A DNA stretch of 64,000 nucleotides, from the IMG/VR virus record IMGVR_UViG_3300021295_000003, positions 40,718 to 104,717 of that record. The stretch is one strand, 5' to 3'. The notes beneath the pieces were generated by a model. The model saw only the letters and a list, made by a program, of their open reading frames with translations. It did no database searches and was not told the DNA's origin. The position numbers and the translations under genes are program-made. Each line of letters starts with the position of its first letter. Position 1 is the stretch's first letter. Source of the DNA: a virus. Lineage: Duplodnaviria > Caudoviricetes. Shown here in pieces: positions 6,801-38,373 of this stretch.

Positions 6801-9800
6801 CAGCAGGGAGTAACACCGCTAAAACAGGGGAAATCATTTTCAAACCTTCAATTCCTGCTTGGATTTCAGGTTCTTGTGCTTTAAATTGTTTACCAACTTC
6901 GGCTAACCCCCACATAGGTGCTTTAAGCAATATAATCGCTTCTGTGATTAAAAGCATACCTGCTACAATACCTATGGCGGCTCTTGCATAATTTTGAGCG
7001 TCAGATTTCAAAGTTTCTTTAAATGGTGTTTTTGCTTTGGTTTTATCCACATCACCATTTATCCCACCAGTAGAAGTTGATGTACTGCCTCCTGTTTTTT
7101 CAATAGCGTCTTCGGCATTGTCTTTAACATCTTTCCAACCTTTTGCAACATCTTTAAGTTTACCACCAACTTTCTTCAAGACCTCAAAGACAGAGTCAGA
7201 ACCTGAAACCCATTTACCAATCTTTAAACCAATAAGTCCCAAACCAGTTCCTAATGCACCAATTGCAAAGACCCATCGACCGCTTTCAGTACCAAAGAAG
7301 TTCAATAACGCTTCTCCAATGCCTACAAGAGCGTCTTTAATTGCATAAGCAGTAGGTTTTAAATCGTCCCAAGTCTTTTGAACAGCTTTCCAAAAGTTAA
7401 GGAATGCGTCATTATTCCAAATGTCAATCCAAAGTAATTTAAGGTTATCAATAGCAAAGTAAGCCCCTGCCATTAAATCTCCTTGATAGAACTGTTTTAA
7501 ATGCTCTCCGGCTTCCTCTGCAACAGTAGAATACTCCATTATGTACTTATCCATATCCTTTTGAGTACGATTAGTTTCATTCATATGCTCCAAGTTTTCG
7601 CTAATATGTTTACTTGAAGCTTCTAACCAATCGTACTGTTTGTTATATGAATTAGTAATCTCATATTGGGCTTGATTGATTTTATCAACCCAAAATGCTT
7701 GTTTTTCAGTCGCTTCGGTTTCAGAGTGTCCTGCTGCCATTAAATTTTGTTTACGGAAACTTGATTGAGCCAACTTAATGGATTTTTCCCTTTCATCATT
7801 TTGGGCTTTATAACTTTTCGCTAACTTATTCGCAGTTTCTAATTCTTTTACATTACCATCTACAATGGCTTTGTTAGCTTTTGCTTGTGCATATTTATTT
7901 TTATCTTCTTTTGAAGTAGCATTAGCATACTTATCCATTATTTTCTGATAACTTGCAGACTCTTCTTTTGCCTCTTTGAGTTTGTCTGATCCGGTTTCAA
8001 CAATTTCGTTGAACGCTTCAACTCGTTTTTTGACAAGGTCTGCTTGAACTGCCATTGAAGATAACCAAGCAACTATACCAATAGCCATTACTCCACGGAT
8101 TGCCAAACCAAGCACTTTCCAAGAAGTAGCAGTTTTAAGAATGGCTTTTCCTCTACTTAATTCAGCAGCTTCACTTAATTTAATATTATTTGTTAGATAT
8201 GCTAATCTTTGAGAGCGAGTTAATTCTAATTTACTTAACTTTCCAGTTAATTTACCATTTTTATCCCGTTCCAAGAAAGATATACGCTCAATATCAATAC
8301 CCTCTTTTAATAAAGCTTTATTATGTAACAATGCTTTTCCATATCCTTTTTCGGCAAGAACTGTTTGATTAACTCCTAATAATCTTCCCATTATGGATTT
8401 AGTCCAACGGGTGTTTGCTACTTCACTTGCTTTTGTTCCGCTGATAACTGCGGCTAATGCTCTACGGAAACCATACTGTGCTACTTCGGCTTTATTCAAG
8501 TTCAAAGCAGCAGTAGCAATTGATTTGCTCCAACCGATAGTTGCAATATCTGCAAGACCCATTCCTTTGGTTACCATTGGTAAAGCGGTGAGTATTCCTC
8601 CGAATAATGCTCCTCCTCCACCAATCCAAAGGAAACTTCTCCAAAATGAATTTAAACTATTAAATGAAGTAGAAACACTATCAATTGCTCCAATAATCAT
8701 ATTAAATGCTTCTACAATCATTGGAGAGGCAGAGTCAAGTAAATCAGCACCAGTTTCCTCAAACCTTGATTGAGTAATAGTCAATACATCATTTAAGGAA
8801 GTTGCTTTTTTAGCAAAAACGTCCCAATGCCTATCAAGGGCTGCTTTTTTCAATGCTTTGAGTAAACCATCGATGTTGGTTTTATCTTCGTCCCAACCAT
8901 ATGCGACTAATTCTTCTTTACCTACACCAGTTTCTCTGGATAATCTTTGGAACTCTCCTTGAAGAATATCTTTAACTGCAAGTGCTGCTTCTTCTGATTT
9001 ACGCCCTGCACGGACATATTCAGATTGTATCATAGTAACAATCGGTAGAGCATCTTTCATCTGTTTAGCAGTTAAATCAAATTCCAAACCAATGCTTGAT
9101 ACAGTTTCTCCTATACTGTACTTATTAACTTTTTTATAGGTTTTTGTGAGTTTATCAAGTTCCTTACGGAAATACTTTATTCCCCCTTCTCCAACCTTAT
9201 CATTTTGTTTTAGTTGAGCTTCCATTTCGTTTTTAGCAGTTACGGTGGTTTTTATGCCTTCTGCAATTTGAGAAGCGAACCCCCAAAGAGCCATACCCCC
9301 CATTGCTGTGAAAATCATTTTAAGAGATAATAATGCCCCCCTAATTTGATAAAGAGTATTGGAAAGTATTCTACCACTATGGGCAGTTTGAGTCACGCCA
9401 TTGTTGAAAGAAGTTAAACCTCTTCCAGTATTACGTGCATTAACTCCTGTTTTAGTTAATTCACTATTTCCAAGAGATAATTCTCTAATTGCTTGTTGAG
9501 AAGAACTTCCAAGTAATTTTAACTTATTTGCTAATTTAGTAAGTTCACTTTCATAAGTTTGAGCTGTGATTTCGCCTTTTTTAAATGCAGTTTCCAATAC
9601 ATTTAATTTATCACGGTAAATTGTTGTTTGTTGGCTTAATTTAGCAAGAGCAGATTTATTCTTACTACTTATACTTGAAAAATGACTCAACTCCCTACTA
9701 ATACGGGATAATTTACCTGCAAGTTCATTAGACATACCCATAGAGTCCATAGAAGACATTACCATATGTGCTTTATTAGAAAAAGCATTCATCTCCGCCC

Positions 9801-14254: not shown

Positions 14255-14326
14255 TGGGAACAGACGGATTTGAACCGTCATCAATGGGTTTGGAGTCCAT
14301 TATGATAGCCATTACACTATGCTCCC
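14255..14326 (-). tRNA. trnW: tRNA-Trp(CCA), intron-less
   Basis: GGGAGCA/TGTTCCC acceptor stem, anticodon loop CTCCAAA, T-arm GACGG-TTCAAAT-CCGTC, discriminator A; no encoded CCA. Confidence 0.9.
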
Positions 14327-25050: not shown

Positions 25051-25272
25051 AGACACATTAGACACATTTTGACACATTTTACAAATGTGTCTTCACGGAG
25101 CAAGGAGAACACGTAAAAACAGTAAAAGAAACCATAAAAACAGTTTTCATATGAAGACACATTTCCGTGTTACATACACCCCCCTTTTTTTCAAAAAGTA
25201 GGAAAAATATAATGTGTCTTTGTGACCTTGTGACCTAATACAATGAAATGTGTCTATGTGACTATGTGTCTA
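25051..25272. repeat. Cluster of GACACAT/ATGTGTC repeats in both orientations
   Basis: agacacattagacacattttgacacattttacaaatgtgtc; gaagacacattt; aatgtgtcttgtgaccttgtgacc; atgtgtctatgtgactatgtgtc. Confidence 0.75.
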
Positions 25273-25893
25273 ACTAATAATATACTATATAAAATAATAA
25301 TATACTAATATATAAGAAAATAAATATATATAATACTCTAAAAGAAAAAATAAATAATATCCATTCTCCAACACTCAAATAAACCCTCACTCCAAAAACC
25401 ACCAAACACAACAAGACACAATAAAAAAATATAACAACGTTATAAAAAGAAAAAAAGGATACAAACATATGACAATCTGTAAAAAGCCGCTTTCCCTGGT
25501 CCCGTGATGTATTAAAAATTTTAAAAAAATAAAATATTCATTGAAAAAAGCGTATTTTTAAGCTTTTTTTTATTCAAATATTAGAAAACTTATTAAAAAA
25601 CGTGACTTTATAGAATAGAAAACAATAAAAAAACTAAAAATTAAACGTTAAAAAAAAATAAAAAAAAGATTGAAAACATAACAATAAAAAAATAATACGT
25701 TAAAAAATCAGTAATAAAGATATTAAAAAAATAAGATATGTTGCGGGCCTTGGTGGTGCCCGTAACATATGAGTATATTATTAATAGGTTTTAAGGCGTT
25801 TGCTTTTTTTTATTGTAGTATTTTGTATATTATTTTTAGTATTGTTCTTAATATACTATATAAGATTAGGAATAATATAATATATATGAAGGT

Positions 25894-27190: not shown

Positions 27191-27723
27191 ATGTAATATT
27201 TATTTTACACTTAAAATTAAAAATAGTTTATCTGGTCCCGTTAAACGTGCGGCACGTGTTAAACGTCCCGTTAATTGAATAAATCAATATTTTTAAAGTT
27301 AGTTTATTTTATTGTTAAAAATTGTTAGGCGTTTACGTGCCGTTTAAATTAACATAACGTTTAATTAAATCAATACTTTAAACATTAACTATTAAAATAA
27401 ATAATCATATCTTTAATAATTCTAACTAATAACAATAAAAACAATAAAGTTAAACTATTAAATATAGATTAACTAATAAAAAAAGATTACTTTTTAAAAA
27501 TTTTAACGGCGGACCCGTCAATATAAATGTTTAAAGGCGGGATCCGTTACGGCGTTATAAAATTTAAAATTTTAAAAGATCAGTACGGGACAATATAAAA
27601 TTTTATTTTTTTAAAAGATCAGCTTTCCAGGTAGTTTATCAGCGGCAGCAGCGTCTGTTTCGGGTCCTGGTCCTGATAGGTTAATCTTTTCACGTGAGTG
27701 AGTTGGTGAGAGTGTTTTTTTAC

Positions 27724-28090
27724 TTTAAGTTATGGTAGATAACTCGGCGGAAAAATTTTTTTTCTTTAAGTTTATGGTAGATAACTGGGGCGTTTTTGTT
27801 TTAAGTTATGGTAGATAGATTTTGGAAAATTCGGCTTTAAGTCTTGGTAGATAGATTTCAAAAGTTTTTCTTTTAAGTTATGGTAGATAACTTTGAGGGT
27901 TTTTGTTTTTTTTTTAAGTTTTGGTAGATGGAGTGTGCTTGGATTTTTGTTTTAAGTATTGGTAGATGGTTTTTTAAGTTTTCGTAGATGGATTTGGCGT
28001 GTTTTTAAATTTATGGTAGATGGATTTTTGATTTTGGTTTAAGTGTTGGTAGATAGGTATGGAATGCTTTTTTTAAGTTTATGGTAGATG
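27724..28090. repeat. Array of 11 copies of TTTAAGTTATGGTAGAT (degenerate), about 22-41 bp period
   Basis: Copies near 27724, 27765, 27800, 27836, 27872, 27913, 27951, 27973, 28004, 28038, 28072 with variable T-rich linkers. Confidence 0.9.
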
Positions 28091-28420
28091 ATTTTTTAGT
28101 ATTTTTTAGGGTTTTTCAAGTGTTTCAGCTGCTTTTCAAGTGTTTTTTCAGCAGATAAAATTAAAAAATAGTAATTTTCAATGATTTTAAGATAATTTGT
28201 TAAAAAAAAGAGTAGTTTTCTGTTTGGACGTGTCAAGGAGAGAGAAATGTTTGTGCAAAGACGTGTAAAATTGCACAATATTCCTCTCTCCTCTTATGTG
28301 TTTTCTTTTAAGTGTTTTTCCTTTTAAAATAGTTAGACTTTTTTTAAAAAAAACAATTTAAAAGACGTGTAGAACTATCCTTATGGACAGTTCAGTTAAA
28401 TTATTTGTACTTGAATGTAT

Positions 28421-31598: not shown

Positions 31599-31940
31599 CT
31601 ACTCGATATATCCGGCAAAGTAGACTCCGTGTTGGAAATCTTTGGCAAAGCAAACAAACCATTGATGAATGATTTTAGGTAAAAAATCATATGTAGGTTC
31701 GTAAATGCCTAAATATTCGTCCCAAGAATAACGTTTGCCGTTGTCTTCGTTGATAAATTCAGTACGAATTTCAATTCTCCTTTTTGAAGAGTTTAAGGTT
31801 ATGTAAGTACAATCAACTTCGTGGTAACCTTTTAATTCTTCAATTTCACCTATTTGATAGTAGATTTCTTGTGCTATTGCTTTTGCATTGTAATAAGCAC
31901 TATCCAAATCTTGTCTATCTTTGAATATTGTTAATGTCAT
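31599..31940 (-). CDS. Hypothetical protein, first gene of the leftward operon
   Basis: ATG (MTLTIFK) after GAGGTG RBS. Confidence 0.6.
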   Translation of the reverse strand: MTLTIFKDRQDLDSAYYNAKAIAQEIYYQIGEIEELKGYHEVDCTYITLNSSKRRIEIRTEFINEDNGKRYSWDEYLGIYEPTYDFLPKIIHQWFVCFAKDFQHGVYFAGYIE

Positions 31941-32032
31941 TTTATTTTTCACCTCTCGGAATATAATTGGCACAAGTGTTGAATTTTTGTGGTGATTTTC
32001 AACTACTTGTTGTATAAAAGTTAGATTTTTAT

Positions 32033-32056
32033 AGTATATAAAGGTTTTGGCAGTAA
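32033..32056 (-). promoter_or_regulatory. Archaeal BRE-TATA promoter
   Basis: ACTGCCAAAACCTTTATATACT on the - strand. Confidence 0.65.
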
Positions 32057-32351
32057 TGGGTATCCACCAAATTAACTAAAATATAATAAAAAACATAACC
32101 TACTAACAGAGAGTATAAACATTCAAAGAGGGAACATTAAGTTCTTTAAGAAAGTCATAAACATAGTAGATAGCACATTTTAATTTTTCATAACTTTTTA
32201 GACCTCGGAAAACGAATTTTTTTAATCTCTAAAAACGCAACCTACGTCCTCCAAGAATGTTATACTCTTTTATTTACTTAAATGAATAATCTACTACTTT
32301 TTACAAATATAATAATATCACCACAAAAATTTTCGAGAGGTATAATAACAT

Positions 32352-32552
32352 ATGTTAGATTTATTTAAAATTGCCGGATTAACTGGAATAGTGGTAATAA
32401 TACTTTTTATAATTTTATTGCCATTAATAGCAACTATAATCGTCGGAATTGCATTTGCAAACATTTTAGGGTTCACAGGTATTACTTGGTGGGCTTTCCT
32501 AATAGTATTCTACTTAATTGTAAGCGGAATAATAAGTTTGTTAAGCAGATAA
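32352..32552 (+). CDS. Small two-TM membrane protein
   Basis: 66 aa, almost entirely hydrophobic. Confidence 0.65.
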   Translation: MLDLFKIAGLTGIVVIILFIILLPLIATIIVGIAFANILGFTGITWWAFLIVFYLIVSGIISLLSR

Positions 32553-32570
32553 ATCGGATTAGGGCAATTT

Positions 32571-33326
32571 ATGAAAAAAATTTTACTTATTATTATATTA
32601 TTGTTTATGCTGCCGATTGTGGCAGCTGGAAATAATACGGCTCCTGTTGATAATCCGACTATGTTGATTGAGGATTGTGATACGGTTGTTGCTCTTGAAG
32701 ATGGTGACTCTAATATCTCTTTTACTGATGGTTACAAGGGATATTGTGCTGAATGGGGTAAGCATTCAGCAGAGAAAGGTGATGAGTTCTACGTGCATAA
32801 TGGAGTAGATAATAACATCAAAGTGTATTTTGTTTATTATTATAATGAAACTACCAAGGACAAAATTGCTACACAGCATATGATTTGGAAGTTCACGGAT
32901 AATAAAGAGTTTAGTCGCTTTAACAAGACATTATATCATCAGATAATAGATACAAGCAAGGAAATTCATTTAAATGATAATGGACGGATTAAATATAATT
33001 CTACACATTATTTAGTATATGATTTCAAGTTATTCAAATCAAAGTTCGTCGAATATCAAGACTACATTGGCATTAAAATCTACTTTGAGAAAATCTTGTC
33101 CGTGAATAATACCATAATAATTAACGATACATTTGATAAAAACACTACTTCAAACTTAACTTATGAGAATAATCTAACAATTATCCAAGTAAATCAAACT
33201 TATTCTCAAAAGCAAGATAAACACTACAACTCATCTACATTAAACAGCCACAAAACAGGGAAAAACATTATATTTTTAATTTTAACATTACTCTGTTTAA
33301 TAATCAATAGGAGAAAACAATTATGA
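32571..33326 (+). CDS. Surface-anchored thioester-domain (TED/TQXA-like) protein
   Basis: Signal peptide; GYC motif, TQHMIW motif, YQDYI; C-terminal KTG plus TM plus RRK anchor. Confidence 0.65.
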   Translation: MKKILLIIILLFMLPIVAAGNNTAPVDNPTMLIEDCDTVVALEDGDSNISFTDGYKGYCAEWGKHSAEKGDEFYVHNGVDNNIKVYFVYYYNETTKDKIATQHMIWKFTDNKEFSRFNKTLYHQIIDTSKEIHLNDNGRIKYNSTHYLVYDFKLFKSKFVEYQDYIGIKIYFEKILSVNNTIIINDTFDKNTTSNLTYENNLTIIQVNQTYSQKQDKHYNSSTLNSHKTGKNIIFLILTLLCLIINRRKQL

Positions 33327-33847
33327 CAGACTCTAATACCAAAACAATCAGATATTTAAGCTTGTTTAGTGGAATTGGAGGATTTGAATTAGGATTACAA
33401 AATTCAAAGCACAATTTTGAGTGTGTAGGATTTTCGGAGATAGATAAATACGCGGTGAGCATATATGAAAGAAACTTTCCAAACCACATTAACCTCGGTG
33501 ACGCAACAAAAATCAAAACAGAAGAATTACCCGACTTTGACCTCTTGGTTGGCGGATTCCCGTGTCAAGCATTTTCTATCGCAGGAAAGAGAAGAGGGTT
33601 TGATGACACAAGAGGAACTCTCTTTTTTGAGATTGCACGGGTTCTCAAAGACAAAAGACCCAGATATTTTCTTCTCGAAAATGTACGGGGCTTATTATCT
33701 CACAACAAAGGCGAAACTTTCCAGACAATACTTGAAGTTCTCTCCGACCTACGGTATGATGTTCAATGGGAGGTACTTAATAGTAAAGACTTCGGCGTCC
33801 CGCAGCGAAGAGAAAGGGTGTTTATTAAAGGATATTCTCGAAGATGA
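33323..33847 (+). CDS. dcm: DNA (cytosine-5)-methyltransferase catalytic fragment (motifs I-VIII)
   Basis: LFSGIGG, GGFPCQAFS, LENV, PQRRERVF. Confidence 0.95.
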   Translation: MTDSNTKTIRYLSLFSGIGGFELGLQNSKHNFECVGFSEIDKYAVSIYERNFPNHINLGDATKIKTEELPDFDLLVGGFPCQAFSIAGKRRGFDDTRGTLFFEIARVLKDKRPRYFLLENVRGLLSHNKGETFQTILEVLSDLRYDVQWEVLNSKDFGVPQRRERVFIKGYSRR

Positions 33848-33911
33848 GGTTGATGAGAAATATTATCTCTCACAAGAGATGATGGAGAAAATTTTGGTTG
33901 ATAGAAAATGA
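33465..33911 (+). CDS. Alternative-frame methyltransferase partner polypeptide (M.EcoHK31I beta-like)
   Basis: 148 aa nested in the +1 frame; ends LKDILEDEVDEKYYLS. Confidence 0.6.
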   Translation: MKETFQTTLTSVTQQKSKQKNYPTLTSWLADSRVKHFLSQEREEGLMTQEELSFLRLHGFSKTKDPDIFFSKMYGAYYLTTKAKLSRQYLKFSPTYGMMFNGRYLIVKTSASRSEEKGCLLKDILEDEVDEKYYLSQEMMEKILVDRK

Positions 33912-34782
33912 GGAAAGTAAAATGCTTAAATCCCTCTAAACATCAAGCACAGAAAGTGTATAGTGTTGATGGACTTGCGTGTACGCTCTCCGCTAATGGG
34001 GGGGGGGTCAAGGTGGAAAAACTGGATTGTATTTGGTGGAGAATATGGATAAAAAGATTATAGAGAAGAATTTTGCGGAAATAGACAAAGGGAAATATGT
34101 AACTACTGATAAAGAAAAAGAAAACTGTTACGCCGTGACAACCGCTCAAAGAAGCCGTCCAGTATACAGAAAACAAGATAATTATGTTCTTGAAGAAACA
34201 CGGAAAGTAAAATGTCTTGGGACATATAATACTCATCAAAGTGGGAATATTTATAATCCTGAGGGTATAAGCCCGTCATTGTGTGCTACGGATTATAAAG
34301 CACCTGTTAAGATAATCGAAAAAAAAGTCGAAGAAGTTATTGGTAGCACACAGAAACACGCTGCAAGAACTGATGGAACAGAAACCCCTACATTAACCGC
34401 TTCAATGGGACAAGGAGGAGGACACGTTCCAATGCTTAAAATACGTGAAACTACTAAAAAAGGATACAAAGAAGCAAAGCCAGGTGATGGAGTATTAGTA
34501 GAACGAGCAAGTAGAAAAATAGCAAAAGGTATGGTTCAAAAGGACTCTACTGGAACTATTCGTGCTAAAAGTAACTGGGGAGCAGTAACTGGGGATTATC
34601 GTATCCGCAGACTTACTCCACGTGAATGCGAACGTCTTCAAGGATTTCCTGATGACTGGACCAAATACGGCAAAGATGGAGAATTGATAAGCGACACCCA
34701 AAGGTATAAATGCTGCGGAAATGCAGTTACTACAACAGTAATAACTGCAATAGTGGATAAAATGTTTGATGATGTAGAATGA
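33908..34782 (+). CDS. Methyltransferase multi-TRD plus motif IX/X polypeptide, frame broken at a G10 tract
   Basis: ATG at 33908 MRKVKC...TLSANGG, G10 at 33998-34007, then QGGKTGLYLV in the frame of ORF 34027; RRLTPRECERLQGFPD and YKCCGNAVT. Confidence 0.8.
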
Positions 34783-34955
34783 AACGTGAAGTGCGTGTAT
34801 GGGGGGGCATAGGTGAAAAGAAATCAAATAAAAATACTCAATGGTATTTCCAAGACCGTATCTATGATATTAATGGAATTTCTCCCTCACTTACAAGTTG
34901 GAAATCAGATTATATGATTGCAATAAAAAAGAGGAGCTCAAAAGATGAAGATTAA
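34779..34955 (+). CDS. Stand-alone TRD-like peptide (58 aa)
   Basis: MKREVRVWGGIGEKK...QDRIYDINGISPSLTS; ATGA-coupled to the upstream stop. Confidence 0.6.
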   Translation: MKREVRVWGGIGEKKSNKNTQWYFQDRIYDINGISPSLTSWKSDYMIAIKKRSSKDED

Positions 34956-35133
34956 CCATTTAATAAGTATATTAAAAACATATAATCAAGAAGCGAACAT
35001 TACATTAACAACAAGTGAGGATATTACCGTGTCTTATATCTGTGAAGACCCTAAAACAAAGAGAGAATTAACTCCACAGACAACCAGGCAAGTATTCATA
35101 GAACCAAAAGATTATGAGGGAGAATATGACTAA
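34945..35133 (+). CDS. Hypothetical protein
   Basis: 62 aa, GAGGAG RBS. Confidence 0.5.
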   Translation: MKINHLISILKTYNQEANITLTTSEDITVSYICEDPKTKRELTPQTTRQVFIEPKDYEGEYD

Positions 35134-35278
35134 AAAAATAGTTGATTTGAAGATAAATATAGACGGGCTGATCCTTGCTAATGAAAGTGTTGAAGATTTT
35201 ATTCAGCGTATCGGATCAGGTGTTGATAGTAATTATGATATTCAGTATGAAGTGTTATATGAAGAAGTGATAGACTGA
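35126..35278 (+). CDS. Small acidic hypothetical protein (50 aa)
   Basis: MTKKIVDLKINIDG...; RBS GAGGGAG. Confidence 0.45.
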   Translation: MTKKIVDLKINIDGLILANESVEDFIQRIGSGVDSNYDIQYEVLYEEVID

Positions 35279-35329
35279 TTGATATTATTTACTCAAAATA
35301 ATAATATTATATTAATTATAAAGTATTAT

Positions 35330-35710
35330 ATGGTGAAATTTAATAATTTTACCTTTGGTAGGAAAATGGTGTGAAGGGTAAATCTTCTTCTGTTGTTTTA
35401 TTATCAATATAAACTCCATAATTTATCGAAAACAAGATTTATCCTTCTCTTTTGAAACTTCTGTATTCATTAAAAAAACCTATTTAACTGGATACTTGGG
35501 GGAGATGAATTATAATAGTAATTCCTACGTTTAATGGCGTTTCATAAGCTCTGTTTCATTATATCACTTATCCTTTCCCCCAGTATTCGCTTTTGCTTAT
35601 CACCTTTGATAAGACTTGATATATCCTTTGAGTGTGGAGAAAAATGCAGTTATTCATTTATTATCTCCAAATATGTCGCTTCCTTTGATGGTGGGAAGCG
35701 ACTTTTTTTT
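35330..35710 (+). ncRNA. Putative multi-hairpin small RNA
   Basis: Stems GAAGGGTAAATCTT/AAGATTTATCCTTC and GATACTTGGGGGA/TCCCCCAGTATT; ends in a GC hairpin plus T-run. Confidence 0.45.
35675..35710 (+). terminator. Intrinsic terminator
   Basis: GTCGCTTCC-TTTGATGGTG-GGAAGCGAC then T8. Confidence 0.7.
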
Positions 35711-35721
35711 ATAACTTATTT

Positions 35722-35740
35722 TGAAAACCTTTATATATTA
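35722..35740 (+). promoter_or_regulatory. BRE-TATA promoter for a leaderless transcript
   Basis: GAAAACCTTTATATA about 25 nt before ATG 35761. Confidence 0.65.
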
Positions 35741-35760
35741 TAATATTCATATTATTATTT

Positions 35761-35898
35761 ATGTCAGAACAAAAGACATTACAAATACGAAAGAATACTT
35801 ATGAGCGATTACAGCTACATAAGAACAAATTCGATACGTATAACATAGTGCTTACCCGTTTATTAGATAAATGGGAGGCGTTCTACAATGTCTTCTAA
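35761..35898 (+). CDS. Small ribbon-helix-helix-type DNA-binding protein (45 aa)
   Basis: KTLQIRKNTYERL...TYNIVLTRLLD pattern. Confidence 0.6.
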   Translation: MSEQKTLQIRKNTYERLQLHKNKFDTYNIVLTRLLDKWEAFYNVF

Positions 35899-36295
35899 TC
35901 CTTATATGGGAGTTCCGATTTCAGAGGAAACTCATCAACGTTTAACCAAATTAAAAGGTGAAAATGACACTTTTGATGATGTTGTGAATAAACTCCTGGA
36001 ATTGGAAGAAACATATAATATGCCGGAGGAAACAATGGAATACGAGTATATCTTGCCGAATGGTAAGACAAAAGTGTTCCGTGTGGTCTTTGGTGATAAA
36101 ACCAAGATTGAGTATTACAATCGGAGGAAATATGACTTTGAAAAGGATATTCGTGCTTGGTTTACTGGGGAGAGGATTTCTGACTCTGAAATAAACTCTT
36201 TCATTAGGTTTATTGTTAAGGACAGTAATTTGATGTTGTTATATGATATGGACGAAGAACTGGTCTTGAATGATATTCATATTAGAAGGGTTTAG
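35888..36295 (+). CDS. Regulator with N-terminal RHH-like domain
   Basis: VPISEETHQRLTKLKGENDTFDDVVNKLL. Confidence 0.6.
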   Translation: MSSNPYMGVPISEETHQRLTKLKGENDTFDDVVNKLLELEETYNMPEETMEYEYILPNGKTKVFRVVFGDKTKIEYYNRRKYDFEKDIRAWFTGERISDSEINSFIRFIVKDSNLMLLYDMDEELVLNDIHIRRV

Positions 36296-36535
36296 GTAAC
36301 TATTATATAGATAGTGGTTACATATGATTATACTGTGAGATTAACAGAATAGTTTTGGAAAAGGTTTGATTTTTACTCTTTTTTCAAGGTAGTAAAATGT
36401 TCTTAAAAAAACTACCTTTATAAATATGAAAGAGTAGATTTCTACTAATTTTTCAAGATTATTACTGCCCAAATGCTCTCTTGGAAATAATCAAACAATA
36501 CTCAAAAAGGATATAATTAAATTGGAGGTAAAAAA

Positions 36536-37729
36536 ATGACTGCAATAGAAACATTTTGTACAGAAAAAAATCTGTCAAAAAGCACCACTTCTCTCTATGA
36601 GTCTTGTGTTAAATCATACGAGGCAGTAAATCAGTTAAGTCTTGATGATTTACTCAAAGAAGCCGATAGAGAAGAAGAAGAAGCGATTAGATGGAAAAAT
36701 CGTTCATTAAGGACAAGGTTAATTAATTTCCGTAAATGGTTATTTGACAACAAAAGTCAAGGAACAGCAAACAGATACTTGGGTTGCATTAAAACAATCT
36801 ATCGCCACTTTGAGATTGAATTACAAGACCTTCCGTCTTTTAATTCAAAGCAAGTGGATAAAACTCACGAAAAAAGCTTTGAAGATATACCTACAAAGCA
36901 GGAATTAATCGACGCTTACTACGAAGCGAATAATGTATGTAAATGTATTATTTTATTTGCCAGTAGTAGTGGGATTTCCAAAGTGGACTTCTTAAACCTT
37001 TCTGTTGCAGATTTCATAAATGCTTGTTCTGATTTTGTTACAACTGATACTTTATTGGAGCAGTTGTATGAATTAAAGCAAGTAGACAATCTAATTCCTT
37101 GTTTTGAAGGGTGCAGACAGAAAACAGGTACAAGATACACTACATTCTGCTCCCCAGAGGCAGCAGAACATATCCTCCAATACTTAATCGGACGTGACGC
37201 TGAAATCAAAGAAACCTTTGAAAAAGCAGATGATGAAGAACAGGAAGACCTTCCTGAATGTTTGTCAGAGTCTGATCCGTTGTTTGATATTTCAAGTAGT
37301 CACTTATGGTATGTGTTTAGACGTATTAATAATAAATTACAATTGGGCAAAGTTGGTAAGTTTACACGTTTCCGCTGCCATCAGTTACGTGCTTTTCAAG
37401 CTTCTACTTTGGTGAATTTGGAGGAAAATTCTTTCACTATTGATGAGGTGGACGCTTTACAAGGTAGGAAGAAAGATAAAACTCATAGAGCATATTTCAC
37501 AGAGTCCAAGCAGAAACTCTTTAAGAAGTATTGTGAGAACGTGGACGCTTTACAGCTCTTCAAGACTACTCATAGTGTTACTAATGAAGAGTATGCACGT
37601 ATCAAAGAAGAAAACAGATTTTATAAGAACGAAGTTGTTAAAAATGAGAACAAATTGGAGGAGCAACAAAGGACTATTAATCAAATTCTTGCTAATCAGC
37701 GTGAGTTGGAAGCGTTATTAGGATTATAA
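36536..37729 (+). CDS. int: Tyrosine recombinase/integrase
   Basis: SAM-like N-domain, SSGISK box I, HQLR, LQGR and AY catalytic region. Confidence 0.85.
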   Translation: MTAIETFCTEKNLSKSTTSLYESCVKSYEAVNQLSLDDLLKEADREEEEAIRWKNRSLRTRLINFRKWLFDNKSQGTANRYLGCIKTIYRHFEIELQDLPSFNSKQVDKTHEKSFEDIPTKQELIDAYYEANNVCKCIILFASSSGISKVDFLNLSVADFINACSDFVTTDTLLEQLYELKQVDNLIPCFEGCRQKTGTRYTTFCSPEAAEHILQYLIGRDAEIKETFEKADDEEQEDLPECLSESDPLFDISSSHLWYVFRRINNKLQLGKVGKFTRFRCHQLRAFQASTLVNLEENSFTIDEVDALQGRKKDKTHRAYFTESKQKLFKKYCENVDALQLFKTTHSVTNEEYARIKEENRFYKNEVVKNENKLEEQQRTINQILANQRELEALLGL

Positions 37730-37993
37730 ATTGTGGGGTTGTGAGTTAATCACCACAAAAACTCACCAAACCCTGCAATTAGTTTTTTTTCTTCCGAGAA
37801 GTTGAAAAAAATAACAATTCTTGTAAAAATAGTTAATTCTAATTGCATTTTCTATTTTTATTCATTGTTGTATTTAAGTGTAAAGTATTGATTTTTAGTA
37901 ATTTTTCGTAGGTGCAAGGTAAAAAAAATCACCACATAAAATTTTACCTGTAACCTATTCTTCCGAGAAAAGAACTAACAGAGGTAAAAAAAA

Positions 37994-38122
37994 ATGAAGA
38001 AAATAACATATCAAGGCGAAGACGGAGTCTTCTATTCACAAGAAGAGTTCCAGTCTTTACAATCAAAGATTTTGGAACAAAATCAGCTCATTCAAGACCT
38101 CCTGAAAAAGGTGGTAGAATGA
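37994..38122 (+). CDS. Small hypothetical protein (42 aa)
   Basis: GAGGT RBS; ATGA-coupled to the next gene. Confidence 0.45.
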   Translation: MKKITYQGEDGVFYSQEEFQSLQSKILEQNQLIQDLLKKVVE

Positions 38123-38373
38123 ACGAATTTAAGCAGCAGATAGTGAATGTTCAAGCTTCAACCGTATTGGTTAAATCAAGCAAAGGCACTATTTATCCTG
38201 TTGTGGTATCTGACAGAGTCAGATTAAGTGGTAAAACTATTAACAAGGGAGATACTGGTGTTATTCATCGTACTAATGGTAGGTATTACTTATATGATGT
38301 AATACCTAAACAAGATGAAACCGACAGTTATCTATCCGATGTACCGTTAGGAGATTTGGGCTATGACTACTAA
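38119..38373 (+). CDS. Hypothetical protein
   Basis: 84 aa. Confidence 0.55.
   Translation: MNEFKQQIVNVQASTVLVKSSKGTIYPVVVSDRVRLSGKTINKGDTGVIHRTNGRYYLYDVIPKQDETDSYLSDVPLGDLGYDY

Follow-up and report, generated by a model that had tools for sequence, protein, structure and literature searches.

The same A/C-rich signal, mostly in hairpin loops, marks the early transcription units of a temperate Methanobrevibacter virus

The window analyzed in this study is a stretch of viral DNA of 64,000 nucleotides, corresponding to bases 40718-104717 of the 104,717-bp IMG/VR virus record IMGVR_UViG_3300021295_000003. Its genes diverge at a single point (31941-32351): the leftward set begins at 31940, the rightward set at 32352. 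Past the integrase gene, a second early unit begins. The subject here is a 13-base motif, AAUCACCACAWAA at the RNA level, found at four positions designated slots A to D (copies C1, C2, C3, and C4, respectively). Slot A heads the leftward unit, which encodes two small proteins without assignment and then an ArdC/IrrE-like anti-restriction protein. Slot D heads the rightward unit, which ends with a pair of ribbon-helix-helix (RHH) genes and the tyrosine integrase gene. Slot B directly follows the integrase gene, while slot C lies 180 bp beyond slot B and heads a RecT-containing unit. The same 13-base A/C-rich signal marks each early transcription unit of this temperate Methanobrevibacter virus, as listed below.

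31997-31985, minus strand: slot A (C1), loop motif AATCACCACAAAA, an exact match
31961-31954, minus strand: slot A tail, TTCCGAGA; UUCCGAGA is fused to the Shine-Dalgarno (SD) sequence GAGGUGA at 31951..31961, and the ATG is at 31940
32316-32328, plus strand: slot D (C4), stemless motif TATCACCACAAAA, with TTTCGAGA(GG) at 32331-32338 and the ATG at 32352
36536..37729, plus strand: tyrosine integrase gene, a context gene used to gather relatives
37748-37760, plus strand: slot B (C2), loop motif; the hairpin starts two bases past the integrase stop (37729)
37783..37799, plus strand: slot B U8 tract (37783-37790) and TTCCGAGA (37792-37799); the tail CUUCCGAGAAG can form a mini-hairpin, CUUC-CGA-GAAG
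37927-37939, plus strand: slot C (C3), loop motif; TTCCGAGA, within the tail UUCCGAGA, is at 37961-37968, followed by the SD sequence GAGGU and the ATG at 37994

In the whole record, (A/T)ATCACCACAWAA occurs four times, and all copies are intergenic and in the same sense as the downstream gene. In three of them, the motif is unpaired, occupying the apical loop of a hairpin unrelated to the other two, and TTCCGAGA comes after it; the fourth is stemless, with TTTCGAGA after the motif. A first-pass annotation, made from the letters of the window, had described these four copies and their unrelated stems. They were found at the same places, except that the C3 hairpin starts at 37909, one base from where it had been put. 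The same annotation had assigned all copies to leaders of early operons, which holds for the copies at the unit heads but not quite for C2, which lies at the integrase 3′ end and precedes the next operon. The 9-mer core ATCACCACA has one further copy in the record, inside a coding sequence. The composite pattern ATCACCACAWAA-N(3-45)-TYCGAGA had no match in 301 Methanobacteriaceae genomes. Since four intergenic copies in 105 kb contrast with none in the 301 host-family genomes, the motif is non-random and virus-specific. In IMG/VR, the composite pattern gave 28 matches, about the number expected by chance (a hand estimate), and these were rejected as chance-like because they have no hairpin, a different GC content, or a coding context.

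The three hairpins are as follows, with z-scores (ranging from -3.6 to -4.0) calculated against dinucleotide shuffles.

31972..32010, minus strand: slot A hairpin, stem ACAAGU.GUUGAA/UUCAAC ACUUGU with a 14-nt apical loop; -9.5 kcal/mol, z = -3.99
37732..37777, plus strand: slot B hairpin, 16 bp with a CA bulge; -19 kcal/mol, z = -3.61
37909..37957, plus strand: slot C hairpin, outer stem UAGGU/ACCUA, internal loop GCAA/UGUA, and inner stem GGUAAAA/UUUUACC; -12.4 kcal/mol, z = -3.83

Is the motif kept in related viruses? Homologues of the integrase are numerous, and an alignment of them, used as the query, collected 95 loci; the window's integrase as a single-sequence query had no match in IMG/VR. 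The comparison covers relatives with an integrase identity of at most 60%; the closest integrase homologues are 87%, 85%, and 73% identical. It was found that the same loop exists at the same positions in six further Methanobrevibacter viruses or proviruses, whose integrases are 52-60% identical to that of the window virus. Among the relatives, the copies are distributed as follows.

L049: loop motif at slots A, B, and D
L057: loop motif at slots A, B, and C
L058 (with L061): loop motif at slots A and B
L056 and L059: loop motif at slot B
G001 provirus: slot B with ATCCCCACA, and slots A and D at its other end

Absence from related genomes had been named in advance as an observation that would speak against a function, and the motif is in fact present in relatives, with covarying stems. 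Its retention in the relatives makes it probable that the motif is an archaeal-virus regulatory signal not described before. The methanogen host assumed earlier is supported in that all five genomic integrase relatives fall in metagenome-assembled genomes of Methanobrevibacter; the region's best phage match is to a methyltransferase from Methanobacterium virus Drs3. The host markers PF12386 (pseudomurein endoisopeptidase) and PF09373 (PMBR) had no match, a result that is uninformative because the controls were silent too.

L049, L057, L058, and L135 have hairpins orthologous to that of slot A, in which the arms are unrelated and the pairing is kept. The inner stems of five orthologues differ (GUUGAA, AUGUAA, GUCAUA, UGUCAU, and AUGCAA), and all of them pair. 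MAFFT followed by RNAalifold gave no structure for these orthologues since the unrelated arms were out of register, and it was replaced by a covariance-model alignment. A covariance model made from five slot B (post-integrase) hairpins recovered the copies at slots A, C, and D. In the alignment, 95.9% of the cells are paired, compared with 58.9% when shuffled (none of 500 shuffles reached 95.9%). Compensatory changes on both sides were seen in six of the seven pairs, and slid controls pair at 21-48%. Although this alignment was fitted to the covariance model, which favours structure, the slid and shuffled controls agree with the structure, and so does an independent energy test, in which the constrained folding energy of 14 hairpin copies averaged about -14 kcal/mol, compared with a mean of -5.6 for the null. 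The motif is unpaired and sense to the downstream gene in all 17 copies from the window and its relatives, and 12-13 of its bases are kept over these copies while the neighbouring stems are fully turned over. The covariation among relatives upholds the earlier view that the loop, being conserved on stems that are unrelated, is under selection as a signal. Rfam at its gathering thresholds matched only a tRNA in the whole window, and an E-value scan of 31800-38200 gave only a chance-level snoRNA match (E 0.94).

The promoter of the leftward unit helps to place slot A within its message.

32035..32048, minus strand: transcription factor B recognition element (BRE) and TATA box of the leftward early promoter, AAAACC-TTTATATA

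In five orthologous slot A sites, a canonical TATA element (TTTATATA, with a TATATA box) lies exactly 21 nt before a conserved ATTAnACA. The archaeal TATA box is centred near -26. From this spacing and this usual geometry, transcription would start on the ACA, 0-5 nt before the stem, at about 32013 in the window and thus at the base of the slot A hairpin, which would then form the 5′ end of the message. At slot D, the distance from the end of the motif to the ATG is 24-26 nt in the window virus, L049, and L135, while the upstream context varies. Such a constant distance to the AUG, with differing upstream sequences, suggests that the motif belongs to the leader and not to a promoter. In L049 (1830-1876), a tRNA-like 3′ end (GGTTCAAATCC...CTCCA) directly abuts the stemless motif; the window also has a tRNA, at 14255-14326 on the minus strand.

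The hairpin scaffolds have a wider distribution than the loop. In all relatives, a hairpin directly follows the integrase gene; its conserved 3′ arm ends with ACCAAACCC and is followed by a T-run and a small tail element, which is UUCUUCCCCAAGAA in most lineages, AUCCAAAAGAG in L057 and L058, and CUUCCGAGAAG in the window virus. Lineages without ATCACCACA keep the slot A plan, that is, a TATA box, a hairpin with an A/C-rich loop, an UUCCCCAAAGA tail, GGUGAU, and AUG. A slot C scaffold, GGU-GCA...GUA-ACC, is common to ten viruses, with covarying outer and inner stems and an apical part of 12 to about 60 nt. Comparison of these lineages indicates that the wider virus family inherited the hairpin scaffolds and the SD-proximal UUCC..GAG tail from its ancestor and that the ATCACCACA loop is a feature of a sub-lineage. 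Because relatives without the ATCACCACA loop keep the scaffolds, the tail is a family-wide SD-proximal element and ATCACCACA a sub-lineage insert. For the same reason, the loop may be regarded as an exchangeable specificity element on a conserved RNA frame.

These scaffolds also bring up a simpler explanation, in which the hairpins are generic 5′ stabilisers or terminators and the loop is an inherited, easily kept A-rich sequence without a specific partner. Sister lineages do have the same scaffolds with other A/C-rich loops, and the predicted 5′ end close to the stem would suit a stabiliser. I consider this very improbable, since bases of the loop are kept over the 17 copies while the adjoining stems turn over, and the same sequence is kept even in a stemless leader.

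The slot C-type leader upstream of the RecT-containing unit was observed in the window and nine relatives with a nearly invariant 3x3 internal loop, GCA/GUA, and a covarying inner stem. It has the look of a separate RNA family not yet described, and its GCA/GUA internal loop may be a protein-binding motif. Its positions are listed below.

37909-37957: window virus
9340-9436: L032
8497-8540: L047
1523-1615: L050
1349-1428: L053
3727-3819: L054
8437-8512: L055
5760-5826: L057
1620-1710: L059
2014-2099: L060

Another small element, A6-7-(C)A-ATG-T6-7, lies downstream of slot B, after the tail, in L042 (9220-9250), L059 (1490-1520), L047 (8290-8330), and L055 (8290-8320). It is either an A-run/U-run hairpin, namely a bidirectional terminator, or a conserved micro open reading frame (beginning with MFF/MLF, 8-12 codons).

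It had been pointed out that the loop is complementary to the archaeal SD sequence GGUGAU, and AUCACC is indeed its exact reverse complement. For that very reason, however, the loop is identical, not complementary, to the 3′ tail of the Methanobrevibacter 16S rRNA (GGAUCACCUCCU). Could the AUCACC loop, like the 16S tail, pair with GGUGAU SD sequences in cis, or in trans as a small RNA? Besides the exact complementarity, C1 has a GGUGA 35 nt downstream, but this is the only one of the seven motif-bearing leaders with a downstream GGUGA, and it is the motif-free sister leaders that do have GGUGAU. The possible pairing is at most 5 bp, and no separate small-RNA unit is evident. Pairing with host RNA found no support either: the complement TTGTGGTGAT is no commoner than its control in four host genomes, and the best mRNA-rRNA duplex, calculated for the Methanobrevibacter 16S rRNA only, is -8.5 kcal/mol compared with a shuffled-loop mean of -9.0, which is not above chance. 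Both forms of the anti-SD proposal are thus barely plausible. As a separate observation, the motif-free leaders (slot A of L051, L055, and L032; slot C of L053 and L055) retain GGUGAU as a canonical SD, with a recurrent CAAACCCAUU box behind the hairpins, and the SD sequences of the motif-bearing leaders are mostly degenerate (GAGAGAU, GAGAGGC, and GAGAUGAU). The degeneration may reflect avoidance of pairing with the AUCACC loop.

The first-pass annotation had also suggested a nut-like signal. In lambda nut, a linear element, boxA, lies 5′ of the boxB hairpin, which has a short conserved stem and a 5-nt GNRA-like loop and is bound by N. In the present case, the loop would recruit a viral factor to the archaeal RNA polymerase, which would then read through oligo-U terminators. 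There are resemblances: the putative RNA signal lies close to where each of the two divergent early units begins and, at slot B, just before the U8 between the integrase gene and the next operon; its anatomy is bipartite, with a hairpin loop that would be offered to a phage-specific factor and a conserved linear tail adjoining it; and the loop is lineage-specific, varies between related viruses, and co-varies with a viral gene. However, the loop here is A/C-rich and 12-17 nt long, the stems are not conserved, and the linear element is 3′ of the hairpin, an order unlike boxA-boxB. In slots A and D, the tail and the SD overlap, which points to translation, and no evident terminator follows three of the four copies. 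Pfam and PHROG scans of the early genes, in which small unassigned open reading frames remain, recognised no arginine-rich N-like protein. The host is an archaeon, and NusB is not known in archaea. Processive antitermination is therefore an improbable general explanation, although it could apply at slot B only, since slot B alone precedes a U8 tract.

Which viral gene varies together with the loop? Among the genes within about 8 kb, only two, located just upstream of the integrase gene, co-occur with the motif.

35761..35898, plus strand: small RHH-like protein of 45 aa, with a weak DUF7557 match (E 0.001) and homologues solely in motif-bearing loci
35888..36295, plus strand: RHH protein of 135 aa with a C-terminal domain, PF02697 at 28.4 bits (cut-off 27.9)

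The 135-aa protein is present in the window virus, L049, L056, L057, L058, and L135, and L055 has a 37%-identical homologue. When its profile was searched against 314 Methanobacteriaceae genomes, three matches were found, of which the G001 provirus alone is informative. In the integrase tree, motif-bearing and motif-free viruses are interleaved, and the window virus groups with three motif-free viruses (support 98/98). Since the loop type is polyphyletic on this tree, the coupling of the motif and the RHH pair is not simply due to shared descent of the whole region. The pair is the sole candidate trans factor found, and it is a candidate by co-occurrence. In L055, both slot B and slot C carry a different 11-mer, UUUUUCCCAAA, in their apical loops, apparently as a second specificity class. 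In the G001 provirus and L055, the RHH pair lies in the divergent region opposite slot A. There (L055, 3390-3937; G001 contig C103, 81850-82457, L138), the small RHH gene lies about 23 nt past a TATA-like box, is probably leaderless, and is followed by the gene for the RHH protein with the C-terminal domain. This divergence from slot A is a cI/cro-like layout. The corresponding place in the divergent region of the window is about 300 bp without an open reading frame.

This arrangement leads to the main rival explanation, in which the 13-bp sequence is a duplex DNA operator of the virus RHH repressor, forming an immunity-type module like that of SSV1 F55. The repressor would sit at every early promoter and block RNA polymerase, and the loops would merely be sequence space left free in structured leaders. 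Several observations fit: the RHH pair co-occurs with the motif independently of integrase phylogeny, its place opposite slot A in the G001 provirus and L055 is the classical position of a repressor, DNA binding is the known chemistry of the RHH fold, and the paired sites, 180 and 330 bp apart, would permit DNA looping. That a temperate archaeal virus has both an RHH protein and a short conserved sequence at each early unit also recalls the RHH operators of SSV1 F55, SvtR, and AvtR. Archaeal-virus RHH repressors acting on short tandem repeats at all early promoters are documented, and the CAC-CAC in the motif is a short tandem repeat like that of the F55 site ATAGATAG (PMC5569661). However, the F55 sites overlap the transcription start site and BRE and occur as tandem repeats (PMC5569661), an arrangement typical of RHH operators, whereas the copies described here are single 13-mers, every one co-oriented with transcription, and the slot A copy is centred at about +22 from the predicted start rather than over the BRE, the TATA box, or the start site. 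Fourteen of the 17 copies are in apical loops, as is the second class in L055, and a DNA site would have no need for loops. At slot D, the distance to TATA-like boxes varies, with the tRNA-like 3′ end immediately upstream in L049, while that to the AUG is constant. A palindrome at slot B, GTGA-N5-TCAC, was considered as a dimer operator, but it is absent at the other copies and was dismissed as a by-product of the stem. Taken together, a DNA operator is possible but unlikely.

I tentatively prefer a leader-RNA operator, shown single-stranded to a virus-specific regulator, although I would put its likelihood somewhat short of even. It is favoured because the motif is single-stranded, always sense, on covarying scaffolds, close to the ribosome-binding region, and changes with a viral gene. 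I infer from these features that RNA, rather than DNA, would be the molecule read. Each early unit would have an inherited hairpin scaffold at or near its 5′ end (or at the 3′ end, after the integrase gene) and a UUCC..GAG tail by the SD, and three apical loops and one unstructured leader would display the same single-stranded AAUCACCACAWAA. A virus-encoded, lineage-specific factor would read this sequence on the RNA, so that all early units could be controlled together after the start of transcription. Since the motif lies beside the ribosome-binding region, the control would most likely act on how the first cistrons are translated or how stable they are, except at the integrase 3′ hairpin, where it would act on read-through of the U8 tract. 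Among the functions suggested in the first-pass annotation, a protein-binding signal remains the best reading, with either RNA or DNA as the bound molecule.

There are known systems of this kind in phages. Translational operators such as the MS2 coat-protein operator and the T4 RegA sites are also specific unpaired leader sequences near a ribosome-binding site, and the present motif is likewise common to several early messages and able to give coordinate control. In contrast to these operators, it lies 24-47 nt upstream of the AUG and excludes both the SD and the AUG, and no RNA-binding protein was recognised.

Several points weigh against the leader-RNA operator. The sense and antisense hairpins are about equally stable and have few G-U pairs; neither energy asymmetry nor G-U pairs gave a consistent signal of the strand of folding, so either strand may be the folded one. 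Every start site is predicted from consensus boxes, and a proximal TATA-like box, ATTATACA, could place the start inside the loop, which would fit a DNA operator. RHH domains are binders of double-stranded DNA, and the C-terminal domain has no recognisable RNA-binding fold: the AlphaFold2 model has a pLDDT of 65.6, Foldseek returned nothing at E of 0.001 or below, the best VIA-align Z was 4.5, and neither a PDB profile search nor the ESM Atlas was informative. With an isoelectric point of 4.6-5.8 (the L055 homologue being left out), the RHH protein is acidic, which also counts against the DNA operator. The co-occurrence of the motif and the RHH pair comes from few independent lineages and from loci of limited length, and no loop motif is shared by lineages whose small RHH proteins are similar.

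A bolder version is that an N/nut-like logic operates in an archaeon, with exchangeable loop "address labels" on leader-RNA scaffolds read by the co-evolving RHH protein with the C-terminal domain, or by a partner of it. This seems quite unlikely at present. If true, it would mean immunity-like specificity classes at the RNA level, AUCACCACA in the window virus and UUUUUCCCAAA in L055, and an RNA-based circuit for early-gene control would be described for the first time in an archaeal virus. Were the RHH protein the reader, a member of a DNA-binding fold would be recognising RNA.

To my knowledge, only DNA-binding regulators have been described in archaeal virology so far, and almost nothing is known about expression timing or lysogeny in viruses of methanogens, which include dominant archaea of the gut and rumen. 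If the motif acts on RNA, a layer of control after initiation would be added. A limited literature search turned up no account of an archaeal virus with a hairpin-loop signal in a leader. In Sulfolobales viruses, a highly similar regulatory sequence precedes early, partly anti-defence genes whose coding parts are unrelated, and the consensus is a strong BRE/TATA promoter with a predicted winged helix-turn-helix Aca site (Bhoobalan-Chitty et al. 2024, PMC11065993). The leftward early unit of the window is similar in that it holds the ArdC/IrrE-like anti-restriction protein, while the shared part differs in lying inside hairpin loops of a leader that is predicted to be transcribed. The motif may serve as a sequence tag for early, possibly anti-defence, genes in related proviruses. 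It also offers a testable handle: a 13-nt signal with defined positions, covarying RNA scaffolds, one candidate regulator pair, and a natural second specificity class.

Other repeats were observed in the window. At 27717-28109, at least 11 direct repeats, TTTAAGTnnTGGTAGAT(A/G), spaced by 22-133 bp, lie in a 1.4-kb non-coding low-GC stretch; the same repeat is present in L032 and L049, and the array is likely a replication origin (iterons). The ATCACCACA copies are single and dispersed, and since this iteron array is separate, a replication role for the motif as an iteron or origin box is unlikely and was set aside. Three copies of AAAG..T.GATTT(T/C)TA.T.(A/T)TTTTTC lie on both sides of the integrase gene (36356-36390, 36430-36465, and 37883-37907), and the element is kept in relatives upstream of slot C; these could be promoter boxes or integrase arm-type sites. 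The gene order of the G001 provirus, compared with that of the window, suggests an attP upstream of the integrase gene. The intergenic region was also considered as attP, but the second 16-nt match, on the provirus contig at a distance of 60 kb, proved to be the leader of slot D and no att repeat. Finally, a cluster of short repeats (GACACAT and GGTCACAA, read on the minus strand) lies at 25078-25273 in a non-coding gap by the low-GC region.

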